Of a stretch of DNA of 64,000 nt, positions 1,506 to 56,667 are shown in pieces. Positions within the stretch are counted from its first letter, which is position 1; every line of letters starts with the position of its first letter. A program made the translations under genes and the position numbers. The DNA lies in the IMG/VR virus record IMGVR_UViG_3300013426_000019, positions 32,001 through 96,000 of that record. One strand, written 5' to 3'. Origin of the DNA: a virus. Lineage: Duplodnaviria; Caudoviricetes. The notes beneath the pieces were generated by a model. It worked only from the letters and a program-made list of their open reading frames with translations. It was not told the origin of the DNA and ran no database searches.

Positions 1506-2246
1506 ATGGGAAATACAAGAGACAGCTTAAGGTTAAGTTTATTCAGCAGTCATGATAGTCACAGTAGTCACAGCAGTCACAGCGATCATAGCAGTCACAA
1601 TAGTCATAGTAATCATGCCAACACAGATACCCAGAATTGGGATACTTCTAAGCTAGCAAATATTTCTTTCCCTAGTGCGGATGATACACTTAGTGTACAG
1701 AAATATCAAAATTTAATGAAAAATTTAAATATTATTAGATCCGCAGTAGGATTATCTCAAAGTAGTACCAATGCCTCTGATATTGCGGAGGCTTCAGAGT
1801 ATAATAGATTTAAATTACAATTAAAAAAAGTGACTAAGCAAGGGGTAACAGGAGGCACTTATTACAACGGGTTGTCGGAGGGTGGTACTGATTGGATTGA
1901 TATCCCGGGAGGGGCATCAAGTAAACAATCTTTATTAACAGATGTTCTGGGTTATTCTACTATACAATCTAGAATATTGGATGCTAAAAATAGAGGTATT
2001 CCAGTGCATGCCAGCCATAATAATCATATTGATCATGGTGACCATGGTAGTCATAGCGACCATAGTAGTCATAGTGACCACAGTGACCACAGTAGTCATA
2101 GTAATCACGACAGTCATAGTAGTCACGGCAGTACCGCGGCAAATTCCACATATAATGCATCTATTTATATCTCTAATTTAGGTTCAGATCACGGAAGCCA
2201 ATACTCCACACCTTATAAGAGCTCAGACTCATGCTATAGAACATAA
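1506..2246 (+). CDS. His-Xaa-Ser repeat protein (HxsA-like putative radical SAM substrate)
   Basis: 8 N-terminal and 14 C-terminal H-x-(S/D/N) triplets around a non-repeat core; GGAGG RBS; heads a radical SAM cluster. Confidence 0.8.
   Translation: MGNTRDSLRLSLFSSHDSHSSHSSHSDHSSHNSHSNHANTDTQNWDTSKLANISFPSADDTLSVQKYQNLMKNLNIIRSAVGLSQSSTNASDIAEASEYNRFKLQLKKVTKQGVTGGTYYNGLSEGGTDWIDIPGGASSKQSLLTDVLGYSTIQSRILDAKNRGIPVHASHNNHIDHGDHGSHSDHSSHSDHSDHSSHSNHDSHSSHGSTAANSTYNASIYISNLGSDHGSQYSTPYKSSDSCYRT
1551..1616 (+). repeat. 9-nt period coding repeat (His every third residue), block 1
   Basis: HDS HSS HSS HSD HSS HNS HSN H. Confidence 0.9.
2007..2132 (+). repeat. 9-nt period coding repeat (His every third residue), block 2
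   Basis: HAS HNN HID HGD HGS HSD HSS HSD HSD HSS HSN HDS HSS HGS. Confidence 0.9.
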
Positions 2247-2258
2247 GTATTCATATTT

Positions 2259-3317
2259 ATGAATTTAGGTTTAGGGACTTTACATTTTTCATCTAAAATT
2301 TTGAATTCTTCAGAATTCAGAGAAATGATCCATTATTGTGTTCGAAATAATATAAGTTATTTCGACACTGGATTTTATTATGGGGAAGAACTAACGGAAT
2401 TTGCATTAGGAAAGCAATTATTTAATTTCCCAAGAGAATCTTATGAGATAGCTGTAAAATATATCCTTAATAGAGAGCATTCCCCTGAGGAAATGCTAAG
2501 GATTCAATTTCAGAAATTAAATATATCCTATGCAGACAATTTACTACTACACAATTTAACTGATAAAAATATTTCTTTTTATTTTGATTTTTTGGATTTT
2601 TTAGAGAAGAGTAAAAGAGAGGGCCTAGCAAAGAGAATAGGATTTTCTTCCCATCTATCCCCTCAAAACTTGGAAATTTTCCTAAAAATCAGAAAGTGGG
2701 ATGTAATATACCTTTATTTAAATTGGGTCGATTTTTACTCGAATACGGCCGAGGAAGAATACAAATTATGTGAAAAATACAAAGTCCCTGTTGTTGCTAT
2801 GGGTCCTCTAAGAGGTGGAAGAATATTAACTTTACCTAAAAAATATAGTTTGGAGTTAAAGAGAGTGCATTCCGAGTGGTCTTTGGTGGATTGGTCTCTA
2901 GGTTGGTTTAATTCTTTAAAAAATTGCAACAGAGTGCTTACTGGGGCCCTTTCTATTAAAGAATTACAAGCTAATATAAAAGCCTCTAAAAATAATTTAA
3001 GTTTATCAGATTTAAATCTTCTGAGAGATATTGCTGTAGATTATAAAAAGGAAAAATTAATACCGTGTACCGGTTGTGGATATTGTGAGAATTTTTGCCC
3101 TCAAAAAATAAAGATACCTCTAATAATTAAAAATTACAATAAATTTCTCTACGAGGAGGAGAAAGATCCTCGCTGGCTTCTCTCTTGGATGAAAGAAGAC
3201 TTAGTTTCATCAGATATAAACCTATGTGTTTTCTGTGGCAATTGTGAACAAATATGTCCTCAAAAAATTGATATTCCAAGGAGAATTAAAATAATTGAAT
3301 CTTGTATTAACTGCTAA
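2259..3317 (+). CDS. aldo/keto reductase with C-terminal 2x[4Fe-4S] ferredoxin domain
   Basis: LGLGT, YFDTGFYYG, LLLH, IGFSSH, AMGPLRGG; CTGCGYCENFCP and CVFCGNCEQICP. Confidence 0.9.
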   Translation: MNLGLGTLHFSSKILNSSEFREMIHYCVRNNISYFDTGFYYGEELTEFALGKQLFNFPRESYEIAVKYILNREHSPEEMLRIQFQKLNISYADNLLLHNLTDKNISFYFDFLDFLEKSKREGLAKRIGFSSHLSPQNLEIFLKIRKWDVIYLYLNWVDFYSNTAEEEYKLCEKYKVPVVAMGPLRGGRILTLPKKYSLELKRVHSEWSLVDWSLGWFNSLKNCNRVLTGALSIKELQANIKASKNNLSLSDLNLLRDIAVDYKKEKLIPCTGCGYCENFCPQKIKIPLIIKNYNKFLYEEEKDPRWLLSWMKEDLVSSDINLCVFCGNCEQICPQKIDIPRRIKIIESCINC

Positions 3318-4323
3318 ATGTGATAAGAATTGTAAAAACTGTTTTGCCTCAGAATACAGAAGACAAGAAAACCTTTTAAATAAGGATTTAGATTTATCTT
3401 TTTTAGAAAAAATATCGCCCTGGGACGGAGTATCCTCTCCCGATATAGGTATATTAGGAGGGGAGCCTACCCTAAATTCCTCTTTTTTCTTGATTCTTAA
3501 AAAATTATGGGATTTGGATTATGTTCCTGTGGTTTTTAGTAATTTTTTATTTGAGGATTTTTTCAAAATTAAATTAAATTCTTTTGTTCAGGATAATATC
3601 TCTCAGAAATTAAAATTCCTCGTAAACATAAATGATTTGAAGGGACCACATCTAAGTAGAGTAGTCAAAAATATTAATTTTATTCAAAAAACCCTTGCTT
3701 CTCAGAGGAAACTGAATGAACTATCTCTTTCTTTAACTATAGATCCTGTAAATTTCAATTCTACTTTTAAATATTTATGTGCCTTTTATAAAAAATTAGA
3801 TTTTATGCCTCGTCTTCGAGTAGGGATAGCTCTTCCCTCTGATTCAGAGGATAAATCTCAGTATAAAAAAATTATAAATAATAAAAATTTAGGAAATACT
3901 ATTATAAGCATTCTTCAATGGTCAGAAAGGCATCGTGTGTGTGTTTTTCTCGATTGTGGTATTTACCCCTGTATTTTTTCTTCTGAAGATTTCTCTATTT
4001 TTCAATCTTTTTTCCCAGATTTTAAATTTGGGTGTGGTGATGAACCCGCTTTTGATATTTTTCCTAATGGAAGGTCTATATTCTGTTTTCCTTTAAAAAA
4101 TCAAATTGCAAATTTTCTTTCTTTAAAAAGAAATTCAGATTTTTCTAATTTTTTTGATATAGTAGAAGCAAAAGAGAATTTAAAAAAGCAATTTATAACA
4201 ATGAAAGAAAAATATTCTTGTAAGGAGTGTTTGACATGCTTTTATAGTGATCTCTGTGAAGGAATATGCCCTGCATTCTTAAAAGGTTCTTTAAAAAAGC
4301 CCAAAGAAGCCTACAAAAATTAA
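3295..4323 (+). CDS. radical SAM protein with C-terminal Cys (SPASM/twitch-like) motifs
   Basis: CDKNCKNC, LGGEPT, C-terminal CLTC..DLCEGIC. Confidence 0.9.
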   Translation: MNLVLTAKCDKNCKNCFASEYRRQENLLNKDLDLSFLEKISPWDGVSSPDIGILGGEPTLNSSFFLILKKLWDLDYVPVVFSNFLFEDFFKIKLNSFVQDNISQKLKFLVNINDLKGPHLSRVVKNINFIQKTLASQRKLNELSLSLTIDPVNFNSTFKYLCAFYKKLDFMPRLRVGIALPSDSEDKSQYKKIINNKNLGNTIISILQWSERHRVCVFLDCGIYPCIFSSEDFSIFQSFFPDFKFGCGDEPAFDIFPNGRSIFCFPLKNQIANFLSLKRNSDFSNFFDIVEAKENLKKQFITMKEKYSCKECLTCFYSDLCEGICPAFLKGSLKKPKEAYKN

Positions 4324-4378
4324 AAACAAAATCAAAATAATTATATTATTAATATAAGAGGTAAGGAGATTTAAAATT

Positions 4379-5815
4379 TTGGAGCCTTTATATAAATTTG
4401 AATTTGAAGCTGTCAATATATATTTTTCTGCAGTCTGTAATCTGAGGTGCAGATATTGTTTTCAACCTAAAATAAATGGTATTTCTCAAGAAATAAATAA
4501 AAAAATTGTAAATTGGATTACCTCCGGAAAAATGGAAGAGGATATAATTAAATATTACGGGGTAAATATTAGTGCTCTCTCTCTCTGGGGAGGAGAGCCT
4601 GGTATAAACCTTCCTATATTAGAAGAGAGGTTGGAATTTATTTATAATAAATTCCCTAAATTAGAAACCATACATTATTCCAGTAATATTTCCACAAAGA
4701 AATTAGCGCGCAATTCTGTTAATTTTATAAAAAAAATAGCTTTTTTGAATGAAAAGTTAGGTAAAAAAATCTCAGTATCTTTACAATTTTCAATTGATGG
4801 GCCTCCCGAAATAAATGATTACAACAGAGTTGGCTCAAAAGCAGAAAATATTCTTAATAATATTACCTTTTTATTGGAAGAATTAAAAGATGTTTCACCT
4901 GACTCTTATTCTTTGAATATTAAAGGAACTCAATCCGCGGATAATATTACTTTTCTAATAAAAGACAATAATTTACTTGAATATTATCAATATTTTGATA
5001 AATGGCAATCCCTCTGGCTAAAAATTTTACCTGAAGAAAAAATTCCGAAGGGCTCAACTTTTATCACACTAGTATATCCTGGGAATTTCACCCAGGAGGA
5101 TGGTTTTAATTTTAAAAAGCTGATAGAGCTTCAAAATTCTGAATCTTTTCAAGAAGAATGTGCCTGCAACACCTTTGTAAATTTCGATAACCAAGTAACA
5201 CGCCGTATAAAAGACACCCTTTCGGCTCTCAGGGCTGGTTACTATAGGGAGTATAAGGGGGAGTTATTACGGGTCTGTTCTTGCAGCGCAGGCAAATCCT
5301 GCGGGGGCCTAACCTATGATTCTCAATTTCACCTATGTCAGGCCACCTATATGTTTAATGAGGATATTCTTAATTATATTGAAAAACATAATTTAATTTC
5401 CGAATTTGAGGATAAGCAGGGATTCAGCTTTAGAAGCTTCGACGATCTTATCAAAGATAATATTGTAGTATCCTTTAGCGATGATTTAAAATTGTCAAGA
5501 CTTCTTTATAAGATAAATAATTTTAATTATAATTTATCTCTTAAAGTTCAGTACTTTGAAGTAATTTTATCGGAATTAGCAGCTGCGAATCAAATCAGCA
5601 GATGCTATCTGGACCCTAAGTGGAGAGATTTAGGTGTTGCTTATCTTCTTTTTGGGGGACATGAATGTCCTGTAAATAACATTTGGGAGTTTAGTTCTCC
5701 TTATATAAGAAGCACCTCCCATTTAAAATTGGTTTTTAATGGGGCCTTTGAGTACTATGTAAGTAATCATTATAGAGATATTTTAGGTCTAAACATAAAG
5801 GATATGATAAGATGA
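4379..5815 (+). CDS. radical SAM protein
   Basis: CNLRCRYC, WGGEP, SIDG, CSAG; TTG start after AGGAG. Confidence 0.9.
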   Translation: MEPLYKFEFEAVNIYFSAVCNLRCRYCFQPKINGISQEINKKIVNWITSGKMEEDIIKYYGVNISALSLWGGEPGINLPILEERLEFIYNKFPKLETIHYSSNISTKKLARNSVNFIKKIAFLNEKLGKKISVSLQFSIDGPPEINDYNRVGSKAENILNNITFLLEELKDVSPDSYSLNIKGTQSADNITFLIKDNNLLEYYQYFDKWQSLWLKILPEEKIPKGSTFITLVYPGNFTQEDGFNFKKLIELQNSESFQEECACNTFVNFDNQVTRRIKDTLSALRAGYYREYKGELLRVCSCSAGKSCGGLTYDSQFHLCQATYMFNEDILNYIEKHNLISEFEDKQGFSFRSFDDLIKDNIVVSFSDDLKLSRLLYKINNFNYNLSLKVQYFEVILSELAAANQISRCYLDPKWRDLGVAYLLFGGHECPVNNIWEFSSPYIRSTSHLKLVFNGAFEYYVSNHYRDILGLNIKDMIR

Positions 5816-7197
5816 ATTTCAATTTCATAGAAGAACAGAAAAAACTACTTTATTCTTTTCTAGACATTCACTGCTTCAGGAATTGGAGGATTCCCCCCTC
5901 AAAAAGAACAGGAGAGGAGTATGTAAATCTTTTAGAAATGATGGTTTCGCCCGTATGTAATACTGCTTGCACATATTGTTACATGAAAAATTATGCTGAT
6001 TCTCTATACCCTTGTTTTTATGATAAAAATTCCTTATTAAATAATTGTAAAAAGATTATGACCTGGCTCAAAAAAGAAAATTTTTATCCCTCAAGTATAG
6101 AGATTTTTTCCGGAGAATTTTTCAATTTGCCCTTTTGGAAGGATTATTTACAAATAATTTATGATTCTCTAGAAAAAATGGAGGAGGGTAAAAAAGTACC
6201 AATAGTAATTCCCACCAATGGAACTTTTTTTGATTCTGAGAAAAAAACACAGGAAATACAAGATTATTTTGACAGAGTTTATAAAAAAGGTTTTATTATT
6301 GTTCTATCTCTCTCTGTAGATGGATATTATTTAGATAATGATACACGCCCTTTTAGAGACAAAAGAAGATACACAGAAGATTTTTATGATAGGATGTTTA
6401 GATTTGGGGCTCGTAATTTAATTAAATATCATCCTATGATAGGCGCGAAAGGTATAGAGAGATGGGTAGATAATTTCGATTGGTATGTAGAAAATATTCA
6501 AAAATATTACAAAATTCCAAAAAAAGAAGCCCTTGAAAAATTATACTTATTAGAGGTAAGAAATCCCGACTGGTCTACTAAGGAATTAAAAGATTTTAAA
6601 GTTTTTTTAAATCATATAATTGATGTTTTATTTGAGGGGTGCACATCTCCTGAGGAGAAGTTCAATCTACTTCTCAGCAATACTTTAAATATACTAGCAC
6701 CTCTAGTAGTTACTATAGGAAGAGGCCTCCCCTGCTCTTTTCAGCAGTGTCTAGATTTAAGGGTAGGAGATCTTGCCTTAGTTCAGTGTCATAGAACAGC
6801 ATATAGCGAATTGCTAGGCGGGTATTTTAAAATATCAGATAAAGGAGAATTAGACCTAGACGTGCGCAATGCAAATTCATACATTTTTTCTAATTCTTTT
6901 AATTTTAAACACCTAGCCAAATGCATAGATTGTCCTATTAGCTCTCTTTGTAATGGGCCTTGTTTAGGGTGTAATTATGAGGTTAACAGGGATTTATATA
7001 CTGTAGTGCCTACAGTTTGTGATTTAGAATACACAAAGGCTTTGACTTTAGTTGAAAGGGCGTATCAAGAAGGCTTTTTAGATAGTATTTTAGAAATACA
7101 TTCAAATAGCACCTCCTCTGATTCTGTTTTAAAGAAAAATCAATTATTACACCTTAAAAAATATCTAGAAATTAAAAACACTAAAGGAGATTTTTAA
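5812..7197 (+). CDS. radical SAM/SPASM protein
   Basis: CNTACTYC, PTNGT, SVDG, CHR, CIDC...CNGPCLGC. Confidence 0.9.
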   Translation: MNFNFIEEQKKLLYSFLDIHCFRNWRIPPSKRTGEEYVNLLEMMVSPVCNTACTYCYMKNYADSLYPCFYDKNSLLNNCKKIMTWLKKENFYPSSIEIFSGEFFNLPFWKDYLQIIYDSLEKMEEGKKVPIVIPTNGTFFDSEKKTQEIQDYFDRVYKKGFIIVLSLSVDGYYLDNDTRPFRDKRRYTEDFYDRMFRFGARNLIKYHPMIGAKGIERWVDNFDWYVENIQKYYKIPKKEALEKLYLLEVRNPDWSTKELKDFKVFLNHIIDVLFEGCTSPEEKFNLLLSNTLNILAPLVVTIGRGLPCSFQQCLDLRVGDLALVQCHRTAYSELLGGYFKISDKGELDLDVRNANSYIFSNSFNFKHLAKCIDCPISSLCNGPCLGCNYEVNRDLYTVVPTVCDLEYTKALTLVERAYQEGFLDSILEIHSNSTSSDSVLKKNQLLHLKKYLEIKNTKGDF

Positions 7198-7199
7198 TA

Positions 7200-7703
7200 A
7201 TGTTATTGGATCAAGTAAAAGAATTTATTAATTCAAATAAGAATTTGATAGACGATCTAACTAAGGCTAGACCACAGGGGTATATTTATGCTTTTTTACA
7301 AGAATGCCTCTCATTAATGGAAGGAGGAGATTCCTCAAAAATAGATGAGACCTTTTTACATGAATATAGATATACTGTATTGACTTTTACAGACGTCATT
7401 ATCAAAACAAAAACAACACAATCAGAAAAAATCGTGATAAAAGCAATTGCAAACTTATTATATAATGTCTCTATTAATTATGGCATAACCGAGTGCAGTA
7501 CTGAGCTTAATGCTTTGGTGATACTTTCAGAAGCCTCAAAATCTTTAGAGGATATTTTATATGTATTGATATGTATTTTTAATAAATTAAGTGATAGACT
7601 TTATGAAGAGCCTACGACTAATCTTCTTTCAAGAAAATATTATTTAGAACTAAGTGATTTTTTAGAAGCAAGAAAATCCCATGATGAAAAATATAATATA
7701 TAA
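7200..7703 (+). CDS. hypothetical helical protein in radical SAM cluster
   Basis: ORF with AAGGAG RBS, coupled to upstream gene. Confidence 0.6.
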   Translation: MLLDQVKEFINSNKNLIDDLTKARPQGYIYAFLQECLSLMEGGDSSKIDETFLHEYRYTVLTFTDVIIKTKTTQSEKIVIKAIANLLYNVSINYGITECSTELNALVILSEASKSLEDILYVLICIFNKLSDRLYEEPTTNLLSRKYYLELSDFLEARKSHDEKYNI

Positions 7704-7744
7704 AAGTAACAACAAAACTTAATCATTTTTTAAGGAGTACTTCA

Positions 7745-9016
7745 GTGTTTCAGTGGAGTAATTTAATTATAGTGGCACTCACTCAAAAATGTAATATGAA
7801 CTGTAAATATTGCTATCTTGGAGATAAATCATCCCTTCCCGACACTGAGATGAGTTTTGCCACCTATAAAGTTTTAATAAATCAAATAGCTTTAGATAAG
7901 GTTCAGTTTTTTAAAGAAAAAGGGAAGATTTCCAAATTTCAGGTGCTTCTTCATGGGGGGGAACCTACTCTTATTTCCAAAAATAAATTTGAGAGATTTT
8001 TAGAATATGGAACAAAAGTCTTCAGTGCGTATGGCCTGCCCTTCGAATTTTCAGTGCAAACTAACGGCATTAACTTAGACCGGGATTTATTACAGATATT
8101 TAAAGATTATAACGTCCATTTAGGTATAAGTATAGACGGATGTACTAATAATTTAAGAGATGCCCCTGTTGATCAAAAATTGATTATTAATCATTTAAAT
8201 TTAGCTAAAGAAATGGATGTTAAATTTGGCACAGTAAGTGTATTCACATCATTAGATGATAAAAATTTTTTGGATGAAATTCTAGCTTATAATGGGTGGA
8301 TGTGCATCAAAGTTAATAAAATGGAAGAGTATTATAATAATGGATTAACTCCCTCTCCTGCCCATTATTTTAATAATATATTTCTGCCGTCCTTCAAAGA
8401 TTATATTTCAGGATCTAAATCGAGAATTTATTCTGATTTAGAAAGAATAATAGATGGTTTTTTAATAGATGTTGCTACTTCTCATAGTTATAATACCCAG
8501 AGTACCTGCAAATTTAAGTTTTGTGGAGCAGGAACAAAACTTATAAGTATAATGCCCAGTGGGCTAATGCATATATGTGATCATTGGAGAGGTGATGAAA
8601 CTTTTTACAACGAAAAAGTGCATCAAGTGGGAACTTTTGATTTTCTTACTTTGCAACAATTCAGAGCCTCCCTACGTTGGATTCAAAAATTAAATCCCTT
8701 AATTAAGGAGAAAGGATGTGATAATTGTATTTACTCAATTATATGTTTGCATGAATGTCCCTTATCTAATATAAAGTTAAATGGGAAGTGGGCCCTTGAT
8801 AAAAGGGATTGTGAACTTACTAAGATGATTTATGATTATCTTTGGGAGCATCTTGAGGATTTATTAGAAGGTGTAAGTAAAAGGAAAAATAATATAATTT
8901 CGACCACTGATTTCTCTATATATAAGTTGCATAAAAGATTCCAATTGAGTAAGTATAAAATATCAAAGATTAATCGTAATTCTATTAAAATAGAAAAAGG
9001 CGCAGAGCATGTTTAG
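7745..9016 (+). CDS. radical SAM/SPASM peptide-maturase-like protein
   Basis: CNMNCKYC, HGGEP, QTNG, SIDG, CKFKFCGAG, CDNC..IICLHEC. Confidence 0.92.
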   Translation: MFQWSNLIIVALTQKCNMNCKYCYLGDKSSLPDTEMSFATYKVLINQIALDKVQFFKEKGKISKFQVLLHGGEPTLISKNKFERFLEYGTKVFSAYGLPFEFSVQTNGINLDRDLLQIFKDYNVHLGISIDGCTNNLRDAPVDQKLIINHLNLAKEMDVKFGTVSVFTSLDDKNFLDEILAYNGWMCIKVNKMEEYYNNGLTPSPAHYFNNIFLPSFKDYISGSKSRIYSDLERIIDGFLIDVATSHSYNTQSTCKFKFCGAGTKLISIMPSGLMHICDHWRGDETFYNEKVHQVGTFDFLTLQQFRASLRWIQKLNPLIKEKGCDNCIYSIICLHECPLSNIKLNGKWALDKRDCELTKMIYDYLWEHLEDLLEGVSKRKNNIISTTDFSIYKLHKRFQLSKYKISKINRNSIKIEKGAEHV

Positions 9017-10274
9017 ATTTACAAATTTAATAATTTTCGAATTGACTAGAGATTGTAATCTTAATTGTAAATATTGTTTAATGCAAGAAAAATATAAACA
9101 TAGAGGAGAAATTATTGATTTTGAGCTTTTTAAAAAAATAATTAATAGAATAGCTGAACAAAGAATTTTAAATGGTAAAGATCAAGAAGAATTTCATATA
9201 AATTTTCATGGGGGTGAGTGTACTCTAATAGGAAAATATAATTTTACTAGGTTTTTGGACTATGTGACTAAAACTTACGATGAATTGGGTCTGAATTATA
9301 AATTAGGGATACAGACTAATGGAACTTTATTGGATGAGGAATTCCTTAAGATTTTAAGACATTATAATTTATCTGTTGGTATCAGTTACGATGGTACTGG
9401 GGAGAAAAAGCCTTTACGATATTCCACAGACATTCAAAGTAAACTCGAGGATACTATCAAACTCTGTACCAAAATGAAAGTACCTATTGGTGTATTAGGT
9501 GTTTTATCTAAAAATAATAGTAATAATTTAGTTAAAGACAGTATTTCCCAATTTAAAAAATTAGGTATTTTTTCTAAATATAGTTTTCTTGAGGACTTAC
9601 AAAATCCTTATGATTCTAAAATCGAATTAACAGGAAAACAAATATTCAAAAGAGCATATAAACCTATAATTGATTTTTACATAAAGACTGGAATTAAACT
9701 AGAACAACATACAATAGCTTTAATGACTGACACCTTGACTGATATATTATGCTATCACCCTAGAAGGTATGAGACAGGTTGTTCAGGGTTGATTTGTGGT
9801 GCTGGTATGACCATGATTGCTGTCAGGCCTGATGGTACTATGGGGTACTGCGATAGATATTCTAAAGATTTTAATGAGAATTATATAGAGCACGCTTTAG
9901 ACTATGACTTTTTAGGTCTTCATCAATTGAGCAAAGCTATTAAATTAGTCCAAATAAAGCACAGAATAATTCAAAAAGTAGGTTGTGATACCTGCAGGGC
10001 AAATTATATGTGTGAAAATGGGTGCTTGGCTTTTTATTATTCTAAATTTGGGAAATATGATATTCAAAAGGAACTTATTTGTGATCAATATTTACTTACT
10101 TATGATTATGTAAGAAAAAATTTAGTTAAAATATTATTAAGTAGCATCGACAAACATTTTATTTTACCTGCCGGAATTCATGATATCAAGCCTTATTATG
10201 TAGATTTATTTAAAAATAAATATAAAATTAAATTGACAATAATTGATAATATATTATATATATATAAGGTATAA
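9009..10274 (+). CDS. radical SAM/SPASM peptide-maturase-like protein (paralog of 7745..9016)
   Basis: CNLNCKYC, HGGE, QTNGT, CSGLICGAG, CDTC..YMCENGC. Confidence 0.92.
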   Translation: MFRFTNLIIFELTRDCNLNCKYCLMQEKYKHRGEIIDFELFKKIINRIAEQRILNGKDQEEFHINFHGGECTLIGKYNFTRFLDYVTKTYDELGLNYKLGIQTNGTLLDEEFLKILRHYNLSVGISYDGTGEKKPLRYSTDIQSKLEDTIKLCTKMKVPIGVLGVLSKNNSNNLVKDSISQFKKLGIFSKYSFLEDLQNPYDSKIELTGKQIFKRAYKPIIDFYIKTGIKLEQHTIALMTDTLTDILCYHPRRYETGCSGLICGAGMTMIAVRPDGTMGYCDRYSKDFNENYIEHALDYDFLGLHQLSKAIKLVQIKHRIIQKVGCDTCRANYMCENGCLAFYYSKFGKYDIQKELICDQYLLTYDYVRKNLVKILLSSIDKHFILPAGIHDIKPYYVDLFKNKYKIKLTIIDNILYIYKV

Positions 10275-10284
10275 GGAGCCTCAG

Positions 10285-11865
10285 ATGTTTGATTTAAAAG
10301 TAGGATTTACATGCAATAATAAGTGTATACATTGTGTGGTGGAGGGTAAAAAATCAACTAAGGATTTAACCTTGGAAGAAATTAAAGACATTGTAAATAG
10401 AGTTCCAGAAAGAGAGGGGATTGTACTTACAGGAGGTGAGGTAAGTATAAGAAAAGATTTTTACGATATTGTTAAATATTGTTTTGACAAGGGGCATAAA
10501 GTATGTATACAAACTAATGGTACAGGTTTTACAAAAGAGTTAACAGAAAAAATTGCCCCCTATCTTTCGCAGGTCTTAATAGCTATACATTCTTGCAATG
10601 AGGATATTCATAATAAAATCGTGCAATGTAAGGGTCCTGACTCCATGTATAAAAAAACAATGGAAGGTTTTAAAAATTTAATAGAAGCTGGGGTTAATTT
10701 AGAAACACAGACTGTAATATCCACGTTGAATATAAAGACTTTATATGATACGTATTCCATGATTCAAAAAATGTTGCCAATGTGTTTTATGCATCTGACT
10801 TATCCACACCCTATGGGAGGAGCTTACGACAATCATGAAATAGTATGTCCTAAGTATAGCAATATCAAAAAATATATCCTCCCGATCGTGAGGGATTTTG
10901 GAACAAGACTCGTAGTAGAGGCCATCCCCCCTTGTTATCTGCACCCCTGGTATCAATCCATTGAAATTTTAATGGATTCAGAAATTAAGAGAGGCTCTCT
11001 TTGTCGCAAAGGCTTTGATAAGAGTATTTCTGAATCTAATGAGACTGTACAAGATTATAATAAAAATGATGTAAATTCAAAAAGAAAAGGTCCTCTCTGT
11101 AGTGAATGTGCTTATAACTATGAGTGTATAGGCGTTTGGAAAGAGTATTTAGAATTTTATAGGGATAATTGTGATTTATATCCTGTTGAAGAAATAGATG
11201 ATAATTCTATAAATAGGGTTTATATTAAATTATCCGGGGCTACAGATCAATTCTTGTTGAATCAAATACTGTCCAAATATAAATATGAGGAAATTATTCC
11301 TTATGGAAATTTGAGAAGTAGCTTAAAAACTCTTAATTTTTTTAATTATAAATATATCAGACCTTATGTTTTAACCGAAAAAAATTTATACTTATTAGAG
11401 GAATTTAAAGATATTAATCTCCATATAGAAAAGGATACTCATTTTTTAGATTTTCTTATAAAGAATAATTATAAAAATAATTTTTATGTTGATTTTGATA
11501 TTTTAAATAGAACTTTTGAGGAAGTAGAACCTATTTTGAATAAACTATCACAATTGAATATTGGATATTGTAGAATTTTCCGGAGTAAAGGTGAAAATAT
11601 AGAAGATGGCAAAGAATCTTTTGCTATTTTAAACAAAATTAATAAAATTAGAGATAACTACCCTTATCAAATATTATTTGTGAATGCTCAAAATTGCAAC
11701 TTTGATGAATGTACTTATTTAATTCAAACATTACGTGATGTTTATATTGAAATAACTGACAAAATAATAGAGAATAAAATCGACAGCGATCTGTTTAAAA
11801 CAAAATGTTGCTTGAATTGCACTTTTGATTCTAGGTGTTTTGGTTTTAAAAAAGGAGGACTCTAA
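10285..11865 (+). CDS. radical SAM protein (HxsC-like) with degenerate C-terminal extension
   Basis: DLKVGFTCNNKCIHC, LTGGE, QTNG, IPPC, CSEC..YECIGV; start moved to ATG 10285 after AAGGAG. Confidence 0.88.
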   Translation: MFDLKVGFTCNNKCIHCVVEGKKSTKDLTLEEIKDIVNRVPEREGIVLTGGEVSIRKDFYDIVKYCFDKGHKVCIQTNGTGFTKELTEKIAPYLSQVLIAIHSCNEDIHNKIVQCKGPDSMYKKTMEGFKNLIEAGVNLETQTVISTLNIKTLYDTYSMIQKMLPMCFMHLTYPHPMGGAYDNHEIVCPKYSNIKKYILPIVRDFGTRLVVEAIPPCYLHPWYQSIEILMDSEIKRGSLCRKGFDKSISESNETVQDYNKNDVNSKRKGPLCSECAYNYECIGVWKEYLEFYRDNCDLYPVEEIDDNSINRVYIKLSGATDQFLLNQILSKYKYEEIIPYGNLRSSLKTLNFFNYKYIRPYVLTEKNLYLLEEFKDINLHIEKDTHFLDFLIKNNYKNNFYVDFDILNRTFEEVEPILNKLSQLNIGYCRIFRSKGENIEDGKESFAILNKINKIRDNYPYQILFVNAQNCNFDECTYLIQTLRDVYIEITDKIIENKIDSDLFKTKCCLNCTFDSRCFGFKKGGL

Positions 11866-12449
11866 TGAAAAACATAGGATTGAATAAAACGAGCTGGTCA
11901 GACCCTGAAAAACGGAATTATATTAATTCATGTTTACAGTCAGAAGGAATTATTAGATTTCAGTTTATGCCAAATACATTTTTAAATGTGGTCGAGCATT
12001 TAGAGGATTTAGAAACTTTAGAGCCTCTGCGGGAGATGAATATATATACTCTTTCTCCAAAGGAAGGTAAAAATCAGATTACTGTCAAAAAAGCTTCTGT
12101 AGAACTTAATGTGTTTTTAGGGGAGGGACTTAAAATAAAATCCCCTATCGAAGTAGATTTTTTTACTTTTGTATATATATGTGATGAAATTAACATCCTC
12201 TCTAATTTGATTTCTTTTAAAAAATTATTAAAAGAGTATAATATAGAGGGAAAAATAGAAGGTGACCTTATCTCTCTGGGGGACAGCACTAGATCTGATG
12301 TACTTATTCGCTGTTTCAATTATCACACAACTTCCAATTTACTTAAAACTCTTGTTTTTTGTGATACAAGTAAAATACTCAAAGAGGAGAAGGAACGCAT
12401 ACGATTCAATGAGAATTTATTAGAAATATTAGAAAGAGGAGAAGTTTAA
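11865..12449 (+). CDS. hypothetical protein
   Basis: ORF with GGAGG RBS; positional equivalent of 51135..51824. Confidence 0.6.
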   Translation: MKNIGLNKTSWSDPEKRNYINSCLQSEGIIRFQFMPNTFLNVVEHLEDLETLEPLREMNIYTLSPKEGKNQITVKKASVELNVFLGEGLKIKSPIEVDFFTFVYICDEINILSNLISFKKLLKEYNIEGKIEGDLISLGDSTRSDVLIRCFNYHTTSNLLKTLVFCDTSKILKEEKERIRFNENLLEILERGEV

Positions 12450-12451
12450 TT

Positions 12452-12799
12452 ATGATATATGATATAAATAGATGTAGTCGCTGTGGAAAAAAGTTTGAGG
12501 ATTTAAGGTTATCCATTAGACTGGATATTTTCACTGAGAGGTTAAAAGAAACGGGAGTTTGGGAAGAAATTCCTAACTTAACTCAAGTATCTACAGAAAC
12601 ATTATGCCCCGAATGCTTTGATAGGTTCGTAGATGCCATGGCTTCTCTTAACGTTCCTCATGAGATTCATGAGGAAATGCTAGAAGAAGCTGTAAATGAT
12701 GTCGCAAGTATCTATCCTGTAGAACCTGCCCTAGGAAATTCTCAAGTTTTTCCAGATCAGCCAAAATCCGAAAATAAAATTTCCTTAGTAGAAGACTAA
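12452..12799 (+). CDS. small zinc-finger protein
   Basis: CSRC...CPEC; paralog of 51835..52107. Confidence 0.7.
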   Translation: MIYDINRCSRCGKKFEDLRLSIRLDIFTERLKETGVWEEIPNLTQVSTETLCPECFDRFVDAMASLNVPHEIHEEMLEEAVNDVASIYPVEPALGNSQVFPDQPKSENKISLVED

Positions 12800-12827
12800 G
12801 AATATTTTAAAAGGTATTGATTTATTT

Positions 12828-13832
12828 ATGGAATTTAAATATAAATTATGTGCCTATGCTATTTGTAAAAATGAGTCTCAATTTATTGATAGATGGGTAG
12901 ATTCGATGAGTGAGGCAGATTATATATGTGTATTGGATACAGGCAGCACTGATGACTCTTTTTTAAAATTAAAATTAAGGGGAGTTCATACAGAACAAAG
13001 AATATTTGAACCTTTCGATTTTAGTGTTGCCAGAAATGAATCTTTAAAATTAATCCCTAGTTGGTGTGATCTCGCAATTTGGGTTGATTTAGATGAATAC
13101 ATGGAGCCAGGCTGGCGCTCCATATTAGAAGCAAATTTTTATGGGCTTATGATGGATGTAATAAGGTCTAATCCCATAGAGGACTTTAGCGGCAAACCTT
13201 TAGAAAGGATGGATTCAATATGTTGCCAACGTATTCACAGAGTAAATTATAATAACAGTAAATTAAAATTTGTTAATCCAGTGCATGAAGGCTTAGTAGA
13301 TTTAAATAACTTAAATTATAGAAGTTCCCTTATAAAGGGTCTTAAGTTAATCCACACTCCTGATTATAGCAAAAGCCGTATTTTTTATAAAGATTTAAAG
13401 ATTTCAAAAGAAAAGGCTTCAATCGAGAAAGCTTTAAAAAATAAGGATAATTTAAAGATTTATTTTAAGGGTATAAGAAATTTTATAGATGATTATACTA
13501 ATCCTATAGATCCTAATTGTGATTTATTTAAAGAATATAAAAATGTTATCTGTGACAGATTATTAAAATTAAAAACAGGGTATCCTTTTGCCATTTATCT
13601 TTTGTGCCTATTGAATTTTTTAGAAACAAATCAAATCCCTCGAGATTTAAGTTTTGAGTTATATAAGAGGAGCCCGATTTGGTATTCTAGATTTATATTG
13701 ATTATGTGGGTCTGGAGTGATAAGAACTTGAGGAAAGGGAATCCTAGATACAGGGAAATATATCAATTGATAACCAATAAGGAGCCTTCTTTGCTAGAAA
13801 TAAGCAGGATCCAAAATTACATAGAGGTATGA
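12828..13832 (+). CDS. glycosyltransferase family 2
   Basis: ICKNE, VLDTGSTD, FSVARNESL, DLDE (DxD), VHE. Confidence 0.9.
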   Translation: MEFKYKLCAYAICKNESQFIDRWVDSMSEADYICVLDTGSTDDSFLKLKLRGVHTEQRIFEPFDFSVARNESLKLIPSWCDLAIWVDLDEYMEPGWRSILEANFYGLMMDVIRSNPIEDFSGKPLERMDSICCQRIHRVNYNNSKLKFVNPVHEGLVDLNNLNYRSSLIKGLKLIHTPDYSKSRIFYKDLKISKEKASIEKALKNKDNLKIYFKGIRNFIDDYTNPIDPNCDLFKEYKNVICDRLLKLKTGYPFAIYLLCLLNFLETNQIPRDLSFELYKRSPIWYSRFILIMWVWSDKNLRKGNPRYREIYQLITNKEPSLLEISRIQNYIEV

Positions 13833-32082: not shown

Positions 32083-32110
32083 TCTTAGTGACTTAAGGTT
32101 AAGATAACTA

Positions 32111-32132
32111 AGGCCCTTCAAATGAGGGGCCT
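32111..32132 (+). terminator. terminator hairpin
   Basis: AGGCCCTTC-aaat-GAGGGGCCT. Confidence 0.6.
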
Positions 32133-32170
32133 ATTGTTATGGTCACGTAAACAAACTAATTGCTATAGAG

Positions 32171-33670: not shown

Positions 33671-33681
33671 GGTTAACATAA

Positions 33682-40788: not shown

Positions 40789-40803
40789 GAGGAGAAGAGA
40801 TTA

Positions 40804-47793: not shown

Positions 47794-48873
47794 ATGTTGA
47801 GAGGATTAGAAAATCTTAAAATAAGATTCAAGTTAAAGCTGCATGCTTCGAGCTTCTTTTTATTTCCTAGAAAAAATAATATTATAACCAATATTATTAA
47901 TCTCCCTAAAAATATAGAAAATTTAAATGCCTCTAGAAATAAAGTTACTATTGAATTAAATTTAAAGTGCAATGCAAATTGTATTTTTTGCAGCAGAGAT
48001 GCTTCGGGGGCTAATAGAGGCTTTTCCTTAAGTTTTGAAGAAGTAAAGAATATTATTGAGACTTCTAAAAGATCAGGCACGCGCATGATAGAATTTACAG
48101 GAGGTGAGGCCCTTTTAGATTCTCTTCTGCCAGATTATTTAGATTACACTCATGAATTGGGAATGCAGACTCAGCTCATTACAAATACCCTTGGATTTAG
48201 CAATCCTATTTTATGCGAGCGACTTTTACCTAAATTAGATTCAATTGAAATGTCTGTACCTTGCGTTAATGAAAATACTTATAATAAATTGACAGGAAAA
48301 AAAGCATATTTTCAATTAATAACTGCTTTAAATAATATTAAAAAATCAGATTGCCAAAAGCAAGTATTTATAATAGCCCTTAAAAGTAATCTTCCTTATT
48401 TACTAGATACCCTGGAATTTTTTAAAGATTTTAGAAATTTAAACTACATATCTATAGTGTATCCTTTATTAGAGGGAAGAATGCATTCTCTTTTTGATGA
48501 ATATCTCTCTTTTTCGGAATTCAGATTTTATATTATACCTTTTTTAAAAAGAGCAAAAGATCTAGGTATTAATATAGTAGGAAGTAAGATACCTCTGTGT
48601 GCTTTTTTTCCTTATGAAAATTTTATTTTTATAAATTCAAAAGAATTTCCTTATAAAAAAAAAGTTATACGTAAATATAAAAATGAACATGTATGCGCTT
48701 ATAGGGAAGAAAATCTACTAGACGATCGAGTAAAATATTTAGAATGTAAAGAATGTATATATAAAGATTCTTGTTTAGGGGTTATAGGCGAGTATAAAAT
48801 TCTTTTTAAAAAAATAGATCCTATTACGCGAGAAAAAAATGAAAATAGATCAAAATATTTTTCAAAATTCTGA
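47794..48873 (+). CDS. radical SAM protein
   Basis: ELNLKCNANCIFCSR, FTGGEALLD, IPLC, CKEC..DSCLGV; start uncertain. Confidence 0.88.
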   Translation: MLRGLENLKIRFKLKLHASSFFLFPRKNNIITNIINLPKNIENLNASRNKVTIELNLKCNANCIFCSRDASGANRGFSLSFEEVKNIIETSKRSGTRMIEFTGGEALLDSLLPDYLDYTHELGMQTQLITNTLGFSNPILCERLLPKLDSIEMSVPCVNENTYNKLTGKKAYFQLITALNNIKKSDCQKQVFIIALKSNLPYLLDTLEFFKDFRNLNYISIVYPLLEGRMHSLFDEYLSFSEFRFYIIPFLKRAKDLGINIVGSKIPLCAFFPYENFIFINSKEFPYKKKVIRKYKNEHVCAYREENLLDDRVKYLECKECIYKDSCLGVIGEYKILFKKIDPITREKNENRSKYFSKF

Positions 48874-49837
48874 TTTTAAATCAATTTACAGCAGGGTGTA
48901 CAATGCTGAGAGTTTAGAAATAGGTACTCTTGAGCTAAATCTCAGGTGCAATCTTTCCTGCATCTTTTGCAGCCGAGAAGCCCATGTTTTTAAAAAAAGT
49001 GAGAATTTAATTCTTCCTGAAATTTTATCTTTTATTGAAAATAAAGACATTATAGTGTTTTGTGGGGGCGAGGCCCTGTTAGATTCTAGACTTCCTTATT
49101 TATTAGAGTATTGTAAAAAAACAGGAAAAAAGACCGCCTTAATATCAAATGGCATTCCTTTTTCAGATCCTAAAATTTGCAAAAGTATTTTAGAAAATTT
49201 GGATTTTCTTACTTTGTCTGTTACCTCCGTAGATTCTAAAATTTATAATTTTATGACGGATTCCAATCAATTTTCTCTTTTTCAAAAAGGTCTTGAAAAT
49301 ATAATGAAGGACCCTCATGAGAAAAATTTACATAAAAGTATAAATATAGTATTATTGAATTCAAATATAAACTATTTGCAAGATATTCCTTTATTTTTCG
49401 AGAAATTAGGAATGCATTCAGTTTTTCTCTACTCTCTTTTATACCCTATATATTTAGGTCGTCTATTAGACTTCCCTCAGGAATTTCCTAATCCAACTTC
49501 GGAAATTTTTCAAAAAAATTTAATGAATTTATGTAATCTTTTAAAGTCAAAAAATAAAATAATTAGATTTGAAAATATGTCGAGCTGTTTTATCCCAGAA
49601 ATAGACGCGGATTTTGTGGATTCCGAAGAAAATTACGGCAAACACTCTTTTTATTTAAAAAAAATTAATAATAAATTGATATCCTACACTAGAGATAGTA
49701 TTGTTGGAACTTATAAAAAGTCTTTTCGGTGTGAGTCCTGTTTGAAAAAAAATTATTGCAGAGGTTTACCGGAAGTAGCAAAAATATTATTTGAAAATAA
49801 AATTACCCCCTTCAAGAGGGGCAATAAGGAAAAATAA
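48839..49837 (+). CDS. radical SAM protein (paralog of 47794..48873)
   Basis: ELNLRCNLSCIFCSR, CGGEALLD, CESC..NYCRGL. Confidence 0.88.
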   Translation: MKIDQNIFQNSDFKSIYSRVYNAESLEIGTLELNLRCNLSCIFCSREAHVFKKSENLILPEILSFIENKDIIVFCGGEALLDSRLPYLLEYCKKTGKKTALISNGIPFSDPKICKSILENLDFLTLSVTSVDSKIYNFMTDSNQFSLFQKGLENIMKDPHEKNLHKSINIVLLNSNINYLQDIPLFFEKLGMHSVFLYSLLYPIYLGRLLDFPQEFPNPTSEIFQKNLMNLCNLLKSKNKIIRFENMSSCFIPEIDADFVDSEENYGKHSFYLKKINNKLISYTRDSIVGTYKKSFRCESCLKKNYCRGLPEVAKILFENKITPFKRGNKEK

Positions 49838-51109
49838 ATGTATAGTTTAAAACTAGGTTCTGCTTGCAACAATGACTGCATTCATTGTAATGTAAATTCA
49901 GAAGATAATATTGAAAATTTAATTTTTGAGGAAATTCGGGAGATAGTTGATGATATTCCTCAAGGGGAAATAATTTGTCTAGAAGGAGGGGAACCAACTC
50001 TAAGAGAAGACTTTTTTGATATAGTAGAGTATTGTGGTTTAAAAGGGCATAAAATAATACTCCAAACCAACGGCACGGGCCTCACGGAAGAAATCACCCA
50101 AAAAATAAAGCCTTTTGTAAAAAAAGTATATATATCTATATATTCTTCTAATTCTTATATTCATAATTTAATTACTAGAACTCATAATGAAAAAAGTACA
50201 TTTGAAAAAACAATACAAGCCTTAAAAAATCTCTATAGGTATTCTATTCCATTCAATACGCAAACAGTTATTTCTAAAATTAATATGGCTTCTTTATATG
50301 ATACTTTCTCCTTTATTCAAAAAGAATGCCCTGGTATTTTTATGTGTCTCACTTATCCTCATCCTATTAAAAATATTTGGGAAAATAAAATTTTAACATG
50401 TGTTTCTTTTAAGGAATTGAAGCCCTTTATTCAGCCTTGCTTCAGAGATTTCGGTCCTTTTTTAATAGTAGAGTCAATTCCTCCCTGTTATATATTTCCT
50501 TTTTATCAAAATATAGGATATAATTTAGACGCTATTATTAAAAATAAACTTTTAAAAAACGAGAATTACTATAAATATGGGGATGTAGAAAAATATCCAG
50601 TTAAAAACTTTAATTTTAAAAGAAAGGGCCCTAAATGTGTGGACTGCTTTTATTTTGAGGAATGTCTAGGTGTTTGGAAAGAATATGTAGATTTGTATAG
50701 ATTACATTTCGATCTTTTTCCTATAGATATAAAAACCCCCTGGAATATTTCTTTGGATAATTTTCTACAACTTGAGATAGATGATTTTTCTTATGAGGAT
50801 ATAAAAAAGATCCTAGAAAATAATAAAAATTATAAGCCTGTTTTAATTAAGATTAAAGATTTTTCAAAAAATCTTTCAATTAAATTGAATAGGGCAAAAG
50901 CAATATCTCAGATAGTAGACAATTATTCTTTCCCAATATCTTTTTTAGATATCCCTAAATGTTATTTAGAGCCCTTTACTGGAGTAATCAACACTTATCA
51001 AAAAAATTTTGAAAAAAATTCAGACAAATGTAAAAATTGCAATTTTAGAAAGGAGTGCTTTGGCTTTGATTTCAAATTAATTGATTCCAAGATGAAGGAT
51101 TGGAAATGA
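49838..51109 (+). CDS. radical SAM protein (paralog of 10285..11865)
   Basis: CNNDCIHC, GGEPT, QTNGTG, LTYPHP, IPPCY, KRKGPKC..C...ECLGVWKEY. Confidence 0.9.
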   Translation: MYSLKLGSACNNDCIHCNVNSEDNIENLIFEEIREIVDDIPQGEIICLEGGEPTLREDFFDIVEYCGLKGHKIILQTNGTGLTEEITQKIKPFVKKVYISIYSSNSYIHNLITRTHNEKSTFEKTIQALKNLYRYSIPFNTQTVISKINMASLYDTFSFIQKECPGIFMCLTYPHPIKNIWENKILTCVSFKELKPFIQPCFRDFGPFLIVESIPPCYIFPFYQNIGYNLDAIIKNKLLKNENYYKYGDVEKYPVKNFNFKRKGPKCVDCFYFEECLGVWKEYVDLYRLHFDLFPIDIKTPWNISLDNFLQLEIDDFSYEDIKKILENNKNYKPVLIKIKDFSKNLSIKLNRAKAISQIVDNYSFPISFLDIPKCYLEPFTGVINTYQKNFEKNSDKCKNCNFRKECFGFDFKLIDSKMKDWK

Positions 51110-51134: not shown

Positions 51135-51824
51135 ATGCTAAGAATTTCTTTAGAAAAAGGTGAGGAAGGGTTTGAAATCTTAAAAAATTCTTTAATTGAG
51201 GACAGAGAATCTTTTTTAGAAAATAATTTTATAAAAAATAGAAAAGATATAATCACATTGATTCTTTTGGATAGAAATGTTATTTTTGAAAGGGTTCCTG
51301 AAAAAAGTAGCTCTTTTATAAAAGATAATATTTTCTGGATTAAAGCTCAGTACCCCGCTGTGCTTTCTTCTTCCCTTGCAGGAAGATATGAAAAGCCTTC
51401 TTTATTTCCAAAAGGAGAATTTCTTATAAGTTATTTTCGCTCTTTCACCTCTGAATCCCTTGCTAAAAGGGACTGGATTATTAATGAAATTCCTTATGCT
51501 CTTATTAATTCTATTTTAAAATTAAAAGGAAATGAGGAGTATAAAAATATTCAGTTAAGGGGGCATACAGTTCTCTATAAAAATAAAAAAGTTTTAGCAG
51601 AAGAAACTTTTTATAATTCTTCTTCAGTATTTTTTGATTGTCAGATTCATCTAGATTGGAATCAGGAAAGTTGGGATATTTATGATAAATATTGTAGTGA
51701 ATTTAAAAGTGCATATGAAAAGGGAAATCTTTTATCTTTATTAAATATTTCCAGAGAAGAATTTTTAAAAGTTTTTATATCCGAATTGGAAAATTTGGAA
51801 TATTTTATTAAAATAATGGAGTGA
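51135..51824 (+). CDS. hypothetical protein, possibly remote lipoate/biotin-ligase fold
   Basis: GHTVLYKNKKVLAE weakly resembles the NDIL.NGKK.G motif. Confidence 0.35.
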   Translation: MLRISLEKGEEGFEILKNSLIEDRESFLENNFIKNRKDIITLILLDRNVIFERVPEKSSSFIKDNIFWIKAQYPAVLSSSLAGRYEKPSLFPKGEFLISYFRSFTSESLAKRDWIINEIPYALINSILKLKGNEEYKNIQLRGHTVLYKNKKVLAEETFYNSSSVFFDCQIHLDWNQESWDIYDKYCSEFKSAYEKGNLLSLLNISREEFLKVFISELENLEYFIKIME

Positions 51825-51834
51825 ATTAAATTTT

Positions 51835-52107
51835 ATGGATGAAATTTGTACACGATGCGGAAAAAAGATAGAAAATACAAAAATAGAAATTAATTTAGGC
51901 TTTTCTGTTTTTAAAAGAGAAAATAATGTTTGGGGATTGTCTTTGGATCTTAATCAAAAATCTGTTGAAATTTTATGTGCAAATTGTTTTGATAATTTTT
52001 GCAATACTTTATTTATTAAAAATAATAATGAATTTTTAAAGAATTTTAATACATCTAAAAAAAATAAAGATCCTGTTGAAATTGACGGAAATGTGGACTA
52101 TAACTAG
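51835..52107 (+). CDS. small zinc-finger protein
   Basis: CTRCGKK...LCANCFD. Confidence 0.7.
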   Translation: MDEICTRCGKKIENTKIEINLGFSVFKRENNVWGLSLDLNQKSVEILCANCFDNFCNTLFIKNNNEFLKNFNTSKKNKDPVEIDGNVDYN

Positions 52108-52130
52108 TTAATTTTTTTAACAGACTTAAG

Positions 52131-52166
52131 CAAGAAATCCCTTTGCTTTAGTCAAAGGTTATTCAC
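52131..52166 (+). mobile_element. collapsed IS200/IS605 end remnant (36 bp)
   Basis: TTAAG|CAAGAAATCCCTTTGCTTTAGTCAAAGGTTATTCAC. Confidence 0.7.
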
Positions 52167-52210
52167 ACTAAAGATTAAGTCTTAAAAATTTTGAAGGAGG
52201 GTTTTAAGTA

Positions 52211-53517: not shown

Positions 53518-53520
53518 ATA

Positions 53521-54537: not shown

Positions 54538-54551
54538 AGGAGATTTTTAAA

Positions 54552-54746
54552 ATGGGTATATGCTCAGGATGCTGGGGAAATTGCAATAAGGGCTGTTCTG
54601 GTGATTGTAATAATAAATGTATTTCCACTTGCACCGGATCTTGTGTAGGATCATGTTCAGGATTATGTGAAAATACATGTACAGATACCTGTATTAATAC
54701 TTCTAAAAATGATACTCGTATTACTTCTTTTGTCGTAAAATTTTAA
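54552..54746 (+). CDS. CXXX-repeat peptide (12 Cys), putative RiPP precursor
   Basis: MGICSGCWGNCNKGCSGDC...; AAGGAG RBS; directly upstream of radical SAM gene. Confidence 0.85.
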   Translation: MGICSGCWGNCNKGCSGDCNNKCISTCTGSCVGSCSGLCENTCTDTCINTSKNDTRITSFVVKF

Positions 54747-54755
54747 GGGGTTTAA

Positions 54756-56621: not shown

Positions 56622-56667
56622 TTTTTAATGTTTTAGAGGAGCTTTGGAGCTCCTCTTTATATTATAT

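Follow-up and report, generated by a model that had tools for sequence, protein, structure and literature searches.

A His-x-Ser double-array protein heading a radical SAM operon in a large uncultured phage: an apparent distant analogue of the HXS system

The maturation of His-x-Ser proteins by radical SAM (rSAM) enzymes has been studied in a single case, the bacterial HXS system (PMC13128918). This is an antiphage system of E. coli and Klebsiella that blocks the entry of phage DNA (Li et al., Nat Commun 2026, PMC13128918). Its HxsA protein is processed at the N-terminus and gains +8 Da in one HxS repeat, and both steps require HxsB, HxsC and HxsD (PMC13128918). HxsA also needs a signal peptide and a peptidoglycan-binding domain, and its repeats are described as basic and DNA-binding (PMC13128918). 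Iron is bound by HxH motifs in phage fibres, T4 gp37 among them (PMC11705849).

We have analyzed a 64,000-nt stretch of DNA (the window) from an IMG/VR virus record, of which it covers bases 32001-96000; the record has 158,768 bp and an estimated completeness of 74%. All positions given below without a locus prefix are those of the window. The sequencing runs listed for the source are four DNA runs from one study, with no RNA run among them. The window codes for a split terminase, a helicase, TnpB elements and very large fibre-like ORFs, and the source is a large uncultured phage. An earlier reading of this DNA, made from the sequence alone, had omitted the phage origin, together with the tail-fibre setting of the relatives and the second gene cassette described below. 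A six-frame search of the record gave 11 Radical_SAM matches, with six in the operon of the His-x-Ser protein, four in the second cassette (46484-57489) and one outside the window (G000:C1:119621-119905). Here we compare the operon and its repeat protein with HXS and with the other systems that they resemble. The features are collected in Table 1.

Table 1. Features of the window, with their positions and the basis of each assignment, followed by the related loci (L numbers)
Feature or locus	Position	Strand	Basis or remarks
P0001, His-x-Ser double-array protein, putative rSAM substrate	1506..2246	+	246 aa; translation and homologues
P0001 N-terminal array	1551..1622	+	8 H-x-x triplets, residues 16-39
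P0001 C-terminal array	2007..2132	+	14 H-x-x triplets, residues 168-209
Aldo/keto reductase fused to 2x[4Fe-4S] ferredoxin domain	2259..3317	+	Aldo_ket_red 89 bits, Fer4_9
Accessory rSAM, divergent	3295..4323	+	CxxxCxxC at residue 9, SPASM-like C-terminal Cys cluster
Accessory rSAM, twitch-like	4379..5815	+	CxxxCxxC
Accessory rSAM/SPASM	5812..7197	+	homologue upstream in L005
167-aa protein, no family match	7200..7703	+	weak relative in L005
rSAM-A, SPASM type, no N-terminal extension	7745..9016	+	present in most related loci
rSAM-B, SPASM type	9009..10274	+	conserved in all related loci
rSAM-C, AhbD/HxsC-like core and 220-aa Cys-rich extension	10243..11865	+	conserved in all related loci
194-aa protein, no family match	11865..12449	+	family searches
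Four-Cys zinc-ribbon protein, small conserved partner	12452..12799	+	homologues across loci
Glycosyltransferase-like, last operon gene	12828..13832	+	51% homologue in L013
Three further rSAMs (47794, 48839, 49838)	47794..51109	+	clade-III homologues share an operon with a His-x-Ser gene
229-aa protein (homologue of L015/L024 operon member) and DegV-family protein	51135..53077	+	homologues
CxxxC-repeat protein and CXXX-repeat-type rSAM maturase	53521..55940	+	profile and Cys pattern
FakA-like protein (Dak2 and FakA-like_M)	56644..57489	+	pairs with DegV inside the L024 operon
L002, L004			operon as in the window
L005			repeat gene, 44% identity, between 161-aa gene and rSAM-A, not operon head
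L008/L009			299-aa protein; arrays of 10, 15 and 9 triplets; array from residue 3
L010, L011, L012, L015, L024			N-terminal array only; 12-17 triplets in complete genes; from residue 3
L014			protein split between two ORFs (92 aa and 156 aa); 11 and 26 triplets in the arrays
L013			arrays of 5 and 6 triplets
L025			enzyme set as in L013; contig ends before any repeat gene

The repeat protein

All but one of the 23 histidine residues of P0001 lie within its two arrays, at positions 16, 19 and so on to 37, and 168, 171 and so on to 207, with a strict period of three. The arrays are separated by a non-repetitive core of 128 aa, and the second is followed by a C-terminal tail of 37 aa that contains the only Cys of the protein. 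The ATG start codon lies eight bases 3' of GGAGGA. The sequence-only reading had described 8 + 14 H-x-(S/D/N) triplets around a core of ~130 aa, with 15 residues ahead of the first His and thus little room for a leader. The translation agrees with it on the arrays and on the 15 residues, and the point about the leader is strengthened, as the array starts at residue 3 in several relatives.

At the DNA level the arrays are a loose 9/18/27-nt repeat only, with 63-90% matches. In homologues with 44-72% identity the number of repeats varies (5-8 and 10-14), while the phase of the His residues is constant. The His pattern is therefore selected at the level of the protein, and is not due to chance. 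Among 13 array-bearing proteins the first position of the triplet is always His and the third is Ser in 67%, while the second is free. The arrays of P0001 are neutral to acidic (HSD, HGD, HID) and have no basic residues. Its N-terminus is polar, with no hydrophobic stretch or signal peptide. Scans of P0001 and of its core against Pfam, PHROGs and PADLOC gave no family. An AlphaFold2 model calculated from a 5-sequence alignment was unusable (pLDDT 39), and the Atlas structural neighbours (Peptidase_S74, fn3 and Flg_new) derive from a model with a pLDDT of 0.42 and are leads only.

The core had been proposed to serve in recognition or assembly. This is plausible, as the sole motif common to the clades is a helix located ~25-50 residues after the N-terminal array, at the same offset in each (hhalign E 2e-4 to 3e-3, probability <50%). 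The C-termini of several His-x-Ser proteins hold Cys-Tyr motifs (DSCY, TDCY repeats, CDC), and these may be a second site of modification. The unrelated protein P0008 (182 aa, membrane-anchored and HxsA3-like) also ends in a motif of this type.

P0001 has the tandem His-Xaa-Ser repeats by which HXS is recognized, as 8 + 14 phased triplets. However, it falls below threshold against both HxsA (TIGR03979, 26.3 bits, cut-off 121.65) and HxsA4 (NF038313, 34.6 bits, cut-off 55, E 2.6e-8). It resembles the HxsA3 proteins P0006-P0009 only within the repeat.

The operon and its enzymes

The operon comprises 13 co-directional genes from 1506 to 13832 that overlap or are separated by gaps of ≤55 nt, and the gene for P0001 comes first. 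It has replication genes on one side and the terminase on the other. Its counterpart in each of the two closest relatives lies 3' of genes for a primase, a 5'-3' exonuclease and a phosphoesterase. Generic scans for promoters and terminators gave background levels, and a promoter motif from other parts of the same genome is not found upstream of it. The earlier description of six radical SAM genes headed by the repeat gene holds, with CxxxCxxC in all six products (3295, 4379, 5812, 7745, 9009 and 10243). Five of these passed the Pfam Radical_SAM cut-off in the six-frame search, and 3295 reached 18-19 bits only. An enzyme previously placed at 10285 is indeed an rSAM, but the coordinate has to be corrected: its ORF is 10243-11865, with a TTG start.

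The SPASM enzymes 7745 and 9009 are paralogues with 28% identity, each having a full set of SPASM Cys residues. Their top NCBIfam matches are PapB, anaerobic sulfatase maturase, YhhB, DynA and QhpD, at 70-96 bits against cut-offs of 340-450. The core of 10243 (residues 15-319) matches AhbD at 82.2 bits and HxsC at 74.8 bits. Every curated family cut-off is missed, and the chemistry of the enzymes can therefore not be read from homology. The ferredoxin part of the reductase encoded at 2259 has two CxxCxxCxxxC motifs, and the gene is kept in close relatives only; we infer that this protein probably feeds electrons to the rSAM clusters. A protein identical to the Zn ribbon 12452 is encoded on a 234-kb contig. 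The model of 12452 has a pLDDT of 76 (>90 over ~residues 10-60), and Foldseek found no match to it in the PDB at E<=0.001. An Atlas search with the Zn ribbon was uninformative. No protease, transporter or exporter, or signal peptide was found in the operon.

The sequence-only reading had linked the locus to HxsB and HxsC. The scores fall well short of that: 7745 reaches 59.5 bits against HxsB (TIGR03978, cut-off 370, E 2.5e-16), and 10243 reaches 74.8 bits against HxsC (TIGR03977, cut-off 267.9, E 5e-21), no better than its match to AhbD. The alignment of 7745 starts only at position 81 of the HxsB profile, so that it lacks the N-terminal extension of HxsB. HxsD (TIGR03976, the LLNDYxLRE protein) had no match at E<=1 in six frames of the 159-kb record. 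With the cut-offs for HxsA, HxsB and HxsC all missed and HxsD absent, the phage system is HXS-like in parts but is not a member of HXS.

The resemblance nevertheless raises the possibility that the phage uses an HXS-type block to DNA entry, the matured protein being a superinfection-exclusion or host-takeover effector directed against competing phage DNA. The parts are of the same kinds as in the characterized system (PMC13128918), with a repeat protein of HxS type, rSAMs of SPASM and HxsC-like types and a small partner, and phages often carry exclusion genes. Yet P0001 has neither the signal peptide nor the peptidoglycan-binding domain that HxsA needs, and its neutral to acidic arrays differ from the basic DNA-binding repeats of HxsA. 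The PADLOC scan matched generic rSAM similarity only, and the relatives lie in fibre modules, one of them with a fibre chaperone domain. We consider such a block distinctly unlikely.

A relationship to the triceptide maturases would fit the period of the arrays. Against the XyeB, YhhB, GrrM and FxsB models, 7745/9009 gave 63, 83, 55 and 57 bits, below the respective cut-offs of 450, 445, 310 and 370. The triceptide-type cross-link from His to the X+2 residue that the sequence-only reading proposed for the arrays is a hypothesis only. Alternatively, P0001 could be a classical RiPP precursor, whose arrays would be cross-linked in a triceptide-like manner and then excised as small secreted peptides or a metallophore. 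Clusters with multiple rSAMs and repeat precursors are typical of RiPP pathways, and 7745 and 9009 match cyclophane and ranthipeptide maturases with E 1e-15 to 1e-27. But the operon has no protease or exporter, there is no leader and the array of relatives begins at residue 3. Moreover conservation extends to the 128-aa core and the C-terminal tail, a fibre chaperone domain forms part of one family member, and all the triceptide cut-offs are missed by a wide margin. Excision of small peptides is thus very improbable.

Related loci and the link to the enzymes

The family is rare. Only four homologues turned up when 5.8 billion proteins were searched, by a word-indexed method, with the whole of P0001, and an exhaustive phmmer search of 1.8 billion representatives with its core gave family members and P0010, and nothing else. 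P0010 is a tail-fibre-like protein of 2474 aa with 35 x 69-aa repeats. Its E value of 7.5e-29 is inflated by the near-identical repeats; a single unit gives 8 bits to P0001 and nothing to other family members, and it is a weak lead only. Further loci were reached by searching with rSAM-A and with the Zn ribbon, to give about a dozen related loci, each on an uncultured metagenome contig. IMG/VR and GTDB genomes searched with the family and with the Zn ribbon contained no relatives. GenBank phages had no relatives of P0001 or the Zn ribbon, and rSAM matches at 24-25% only.

In all 11 distinct loci with enough flanking sequence, a protein with His at every third position is found together with homologues of 9009, 10243 and 12452; the L012 contig stops short of the position of the Zn ribbon. 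Across these loci the identity of the enzymes to those of the window ranges from about 25% to 84%. A homologue of 7745 is present in most, a clear orthologue being missing from L013, L014 and L025. The remaining rSAMs differ from locus to locus, as do the reductase and the small proteins. The smallest form is that of L013, with the repeat protein, a C-like rSAM of ~310 aa, a B-like SPASM rSAM of ~410 aa and the Zn ribbon. L013 is tied to the family by its enzymes and array architecture, and not by the core. The association of the repeat protein with rSAMs proposed earlier is borne out, in that none of the 11 informative loci has the repeat gene without rSAM neighbours. So in large part is the choice of 7745, 9009 and 10243 as the key enzymes: 9009- and 10243-like proteins are found everywhere, and 7745 in most loci.

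The position of the repeat gene within the operon is not fixed, since it is first in the window and in mid-operon in L005. This points to a functional linkage, not an accidental one. Adjacency conserved through deep divergence, taken with this change of gene position, indicates that the His-x-Ser protein is very probably a substrate of the conserved phage rSAM set.

Could the arrays act without modification, as a metal ladder or as a store or chaperone, for example of iron for the 11 rSAMs, which would then have another substrate? Twenty-two His residues with neighbouring Ser/Asp would bind metal, and HxH motifs hold iron in T4 gp37 and other fibres (PMC11705849). The Fe-S demand of this phage is unusually high, and the neighbouring DegV, FakA-like and glycosyltransferase genes hint that the substrates may not be proteins. 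However, SPASM enzymes accompany the repeat gene at every locus, and these are nearest to anSME, PapB and QhpD, which act on proteins or peptides. HxsA provides a precedent for an rSAM-dependent change inside an HxS repeat (PMC13128918), and the period of three is unlike the HxH of the known fibre iron sites. Unmodified arrays therefore seem unlikely to us.

Fibre context, the second cassette and known systems

Relatives are placed among fibre genes by three independent lines of observation. Peptidase_S74 is an auto-cleaving fibre chaperone, and the repeat protein of L013 (L013:2321-3418) has a match to it of 33.2 bits (cut-off 22) directly after the second array. This protein also matches tail-protein PHROGs. 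As the array directly precedes the chaperone domain, it would form the C-terminal end of a mature trimeric fibre. In L014 the repeat gene is 3' of the gene for a 987-aa protein with tail-fibre PHROG matches (E 2.5e-20), and in L012, L013, L015 and L024 it is 3' of two fibre-like genes whose products have in common a C-terminal domain that weakly matches Peptidase_G2. If P0001 is a substrate, a fibre-type structural role would be its best-supported function. The chances of this are only about even, because P0001 has no recognized fibre domain, Peptidase_S74 is found neither in P0001 nor anywhere in the 159-kb phage record, and the operon is outside the fibre module. A literature search found no paper that joins radical SAM, tail fibre, phage, post-translational modification and virion.

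The second cassette lies just 3' of the large fibre-like genes (30781-44804) and a TnpB insertion. The ORF at 33682-40788 (2368 aa) has a Gly run near its N-terminus and, around residue 1700, repeats that resemble those of Listeria-Bacteroides (Flg_new) type. Its product probably serves as the main fibre or in host recognition. This ORF, the GGAGG ribosome sites and the DegV/FakA genes together may point to a host of Bacillota type. Relatives of TnpB were sought in GTDB as a clue to the host, and none was found.

The cassette opens with two tandem paralogues of ~170 aa (46484-47531, 35% identical), which have only a weak DUF7399 match. Its rSAM 49838 is a 46% paralogue of 10243. The CxxxC-repeat protein has 338 aa, with 46 Cys residues at a period of 4-5 following an N-terminal domain of ~110 aa, and its neighbouring CXXX-type maturase (54756-55940) scores 217.6 bits against TIGR04115 (E 3e-64, cut-off 350). 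No paper was found in a literature search for 'CXXX repeat' and 'radical SAM' together. Alignment of the His-x-Ser family with the Cxxx-repeat protein by hhalign gave the helix motif only, with a probability of 2%, and homology was rejected. In a language-model search the named cluster nearest to the repeat protein was the Cxxx-repeat target (0.82), which is a lead only.

Components of the two cassettes are brought together in relatives. L015 and L024 have the homologues of the rSAMs of the second cassette, the 229-aa protein and DegV in one operon with the His-x-Ser gene, rSAM-A, rSAM-B and the Zn ribbon. The L024 contig extends further, and has a FakA-like gene in the same operon, with DegV/FakA after the Zn ribbon (L024:10313-11991). 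L013 combines the His-x-Ser module with a glycosyltransferase (51% to 12828), YcaO, a Cys-repeat protein and its maturase (32% and 52% homologous to the pair in the window) and DegV. Since they are joined in the operons of relatives, the window's two cassettes probably belong to a single, larger modification system. The DegV (FakB-like) protein of the window is at 52211-53077, and the presence of DegV and FakA-like genes suggests that the pathway may include a kinase or ligand-binding step.

Two further observations concern these operons. The ~229-aa protein is conserved, at 51135-51824 of the window, L005:6215-6925 and L015:9307-9990. The L005 member has a weak precomputed match to LplA-B_cat (lipoate/biotin ligase-like), and no family emerged when the window and L015 copies were scanned directly against Pfam. 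The YcaO protein of L013 (L013:7685-9463) is a cyclodehydratase (145 bits) located between the His-x-Ser and Cys-repeat modules, and is thus a RiPP-type enzyme in a fibre gene cluster.

The anatomy of the repeat protein, the conserved association of its gene and the fibre context of the relatives incline us, on balance, towards the view that P0001 is the dedicated substrate of a phage-borne rSAM protein-maturation system, and that the product is probably a fibre-type virion or fibre-associated component. The conserved engine would be the paralogous SPASM pair 7745/9009, the HxsC/AhbD-like 10243 and the zinc-ribbon partner 12452. Three more rSAMs, the NAD(P)H-type reductase-ferredoxin as probable electron feed and the glycosyltransferase would be the parts that vary from phage to phage. 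In the absence of a leader, the enzymes probably dock on the helix that follows the N-terminal array, and they would modify the His-x-Ser arrays. The product would remain a protein, most likely a small fibre-type component of the virion or one associated with the fibre. Its modified histidine ladders would form stiff segments that may bind metal, much as might be envisaged for the cysteine-ladder protein of the second cassette.

A bolder extension, which we regard as possible but doubtful, is that in large phages rSAMs turn the His ladders (and in the sister cassette the Cys ladders) of fibre-type virion proteins into covalently cross-linked, metal-holding rods, a modification of the virion without experimental precedent. 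The bacterial HXS system would then be an offshoot or mimic of such a phage module.

Any mass change on P0001 should be large and easily mapped, since the protein has 22 target motifs but no leader, and is encoded alongside its own enzymes and a partner that apparently feeds electrons. With 11 rSAM matches and two repeat targets, the genome would make a compact system for such work. If the product is part of a virion fibre, phages would be modifying their particles with RiPP-type chemistry, and bacterial HXS would gain a counterpart on the phage side.

Four known systems provide the closest comparisons. Phage fibres such as the T4 gp37 tip share with the family the presence of histidine ladders in fibre proteins, but their iron sites are single HxH pairs that undergo no enzymatic maturation (PMC11705849), whereas the phage family has long His tracts of period three and dedicated rSAMs. 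The CXXX-repeat rSAM system (TIGR04115) has a similarly long ladder of evenly spaced reactive residues and a dedicated SPASM enzyme, and a putative example is encoded in the same phage and, beside the His-x-Ser module, in L013. It differs in its period (4-5 for Cys compared with 3 for His) and in the clade of its maturase (54756 compared with 7745/9009). The triceptide maturases XyeB, GrrM/OscB, YhhB and FxsB are SPASM rSAMs that act on repeated three-residue motifs with an aromatic residue first, which the H-x-S period fits. Yet the scores are 50-83 bits against cut-offs of 310-450, and the phage substrate is a 246-aa protein without a leader.

HXS (TIGR03979/78/77/76) is similar in having a tandem His-x-Ser protein, a SPASM rSAM, a shorter rSAM of HxsC/AhbD type and a small partner, and in a product that remains a protein and not a small peptide. 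The minimal phage form, in L013 and for the enzymes alone in L025, mirrors the HxsA/HxsC/HxsB/HxsD layout. In contrast to HXS, the present system is encoded by a phage, with 22 repeats in two arrays rather than five. Its repeat protein lacks the signal peptide and the peptidoglycan-binding domain, and has acidic to neutral arrays where those of HxsA are basic. It has two SPASM paralogues that lack the N-terminal extension of HxsB, and a Zn ribbon in place of HxsD. There are up to six rSAMs in the operon (11 in the genome), with a reductase-ferredoxin and a glycosyltransferase, and the relatives are in a tail-fibre context. Judged by its sequences, the system is a distant, much enlarged and phage-borne analogue of HXS, with a new substrate architecture.
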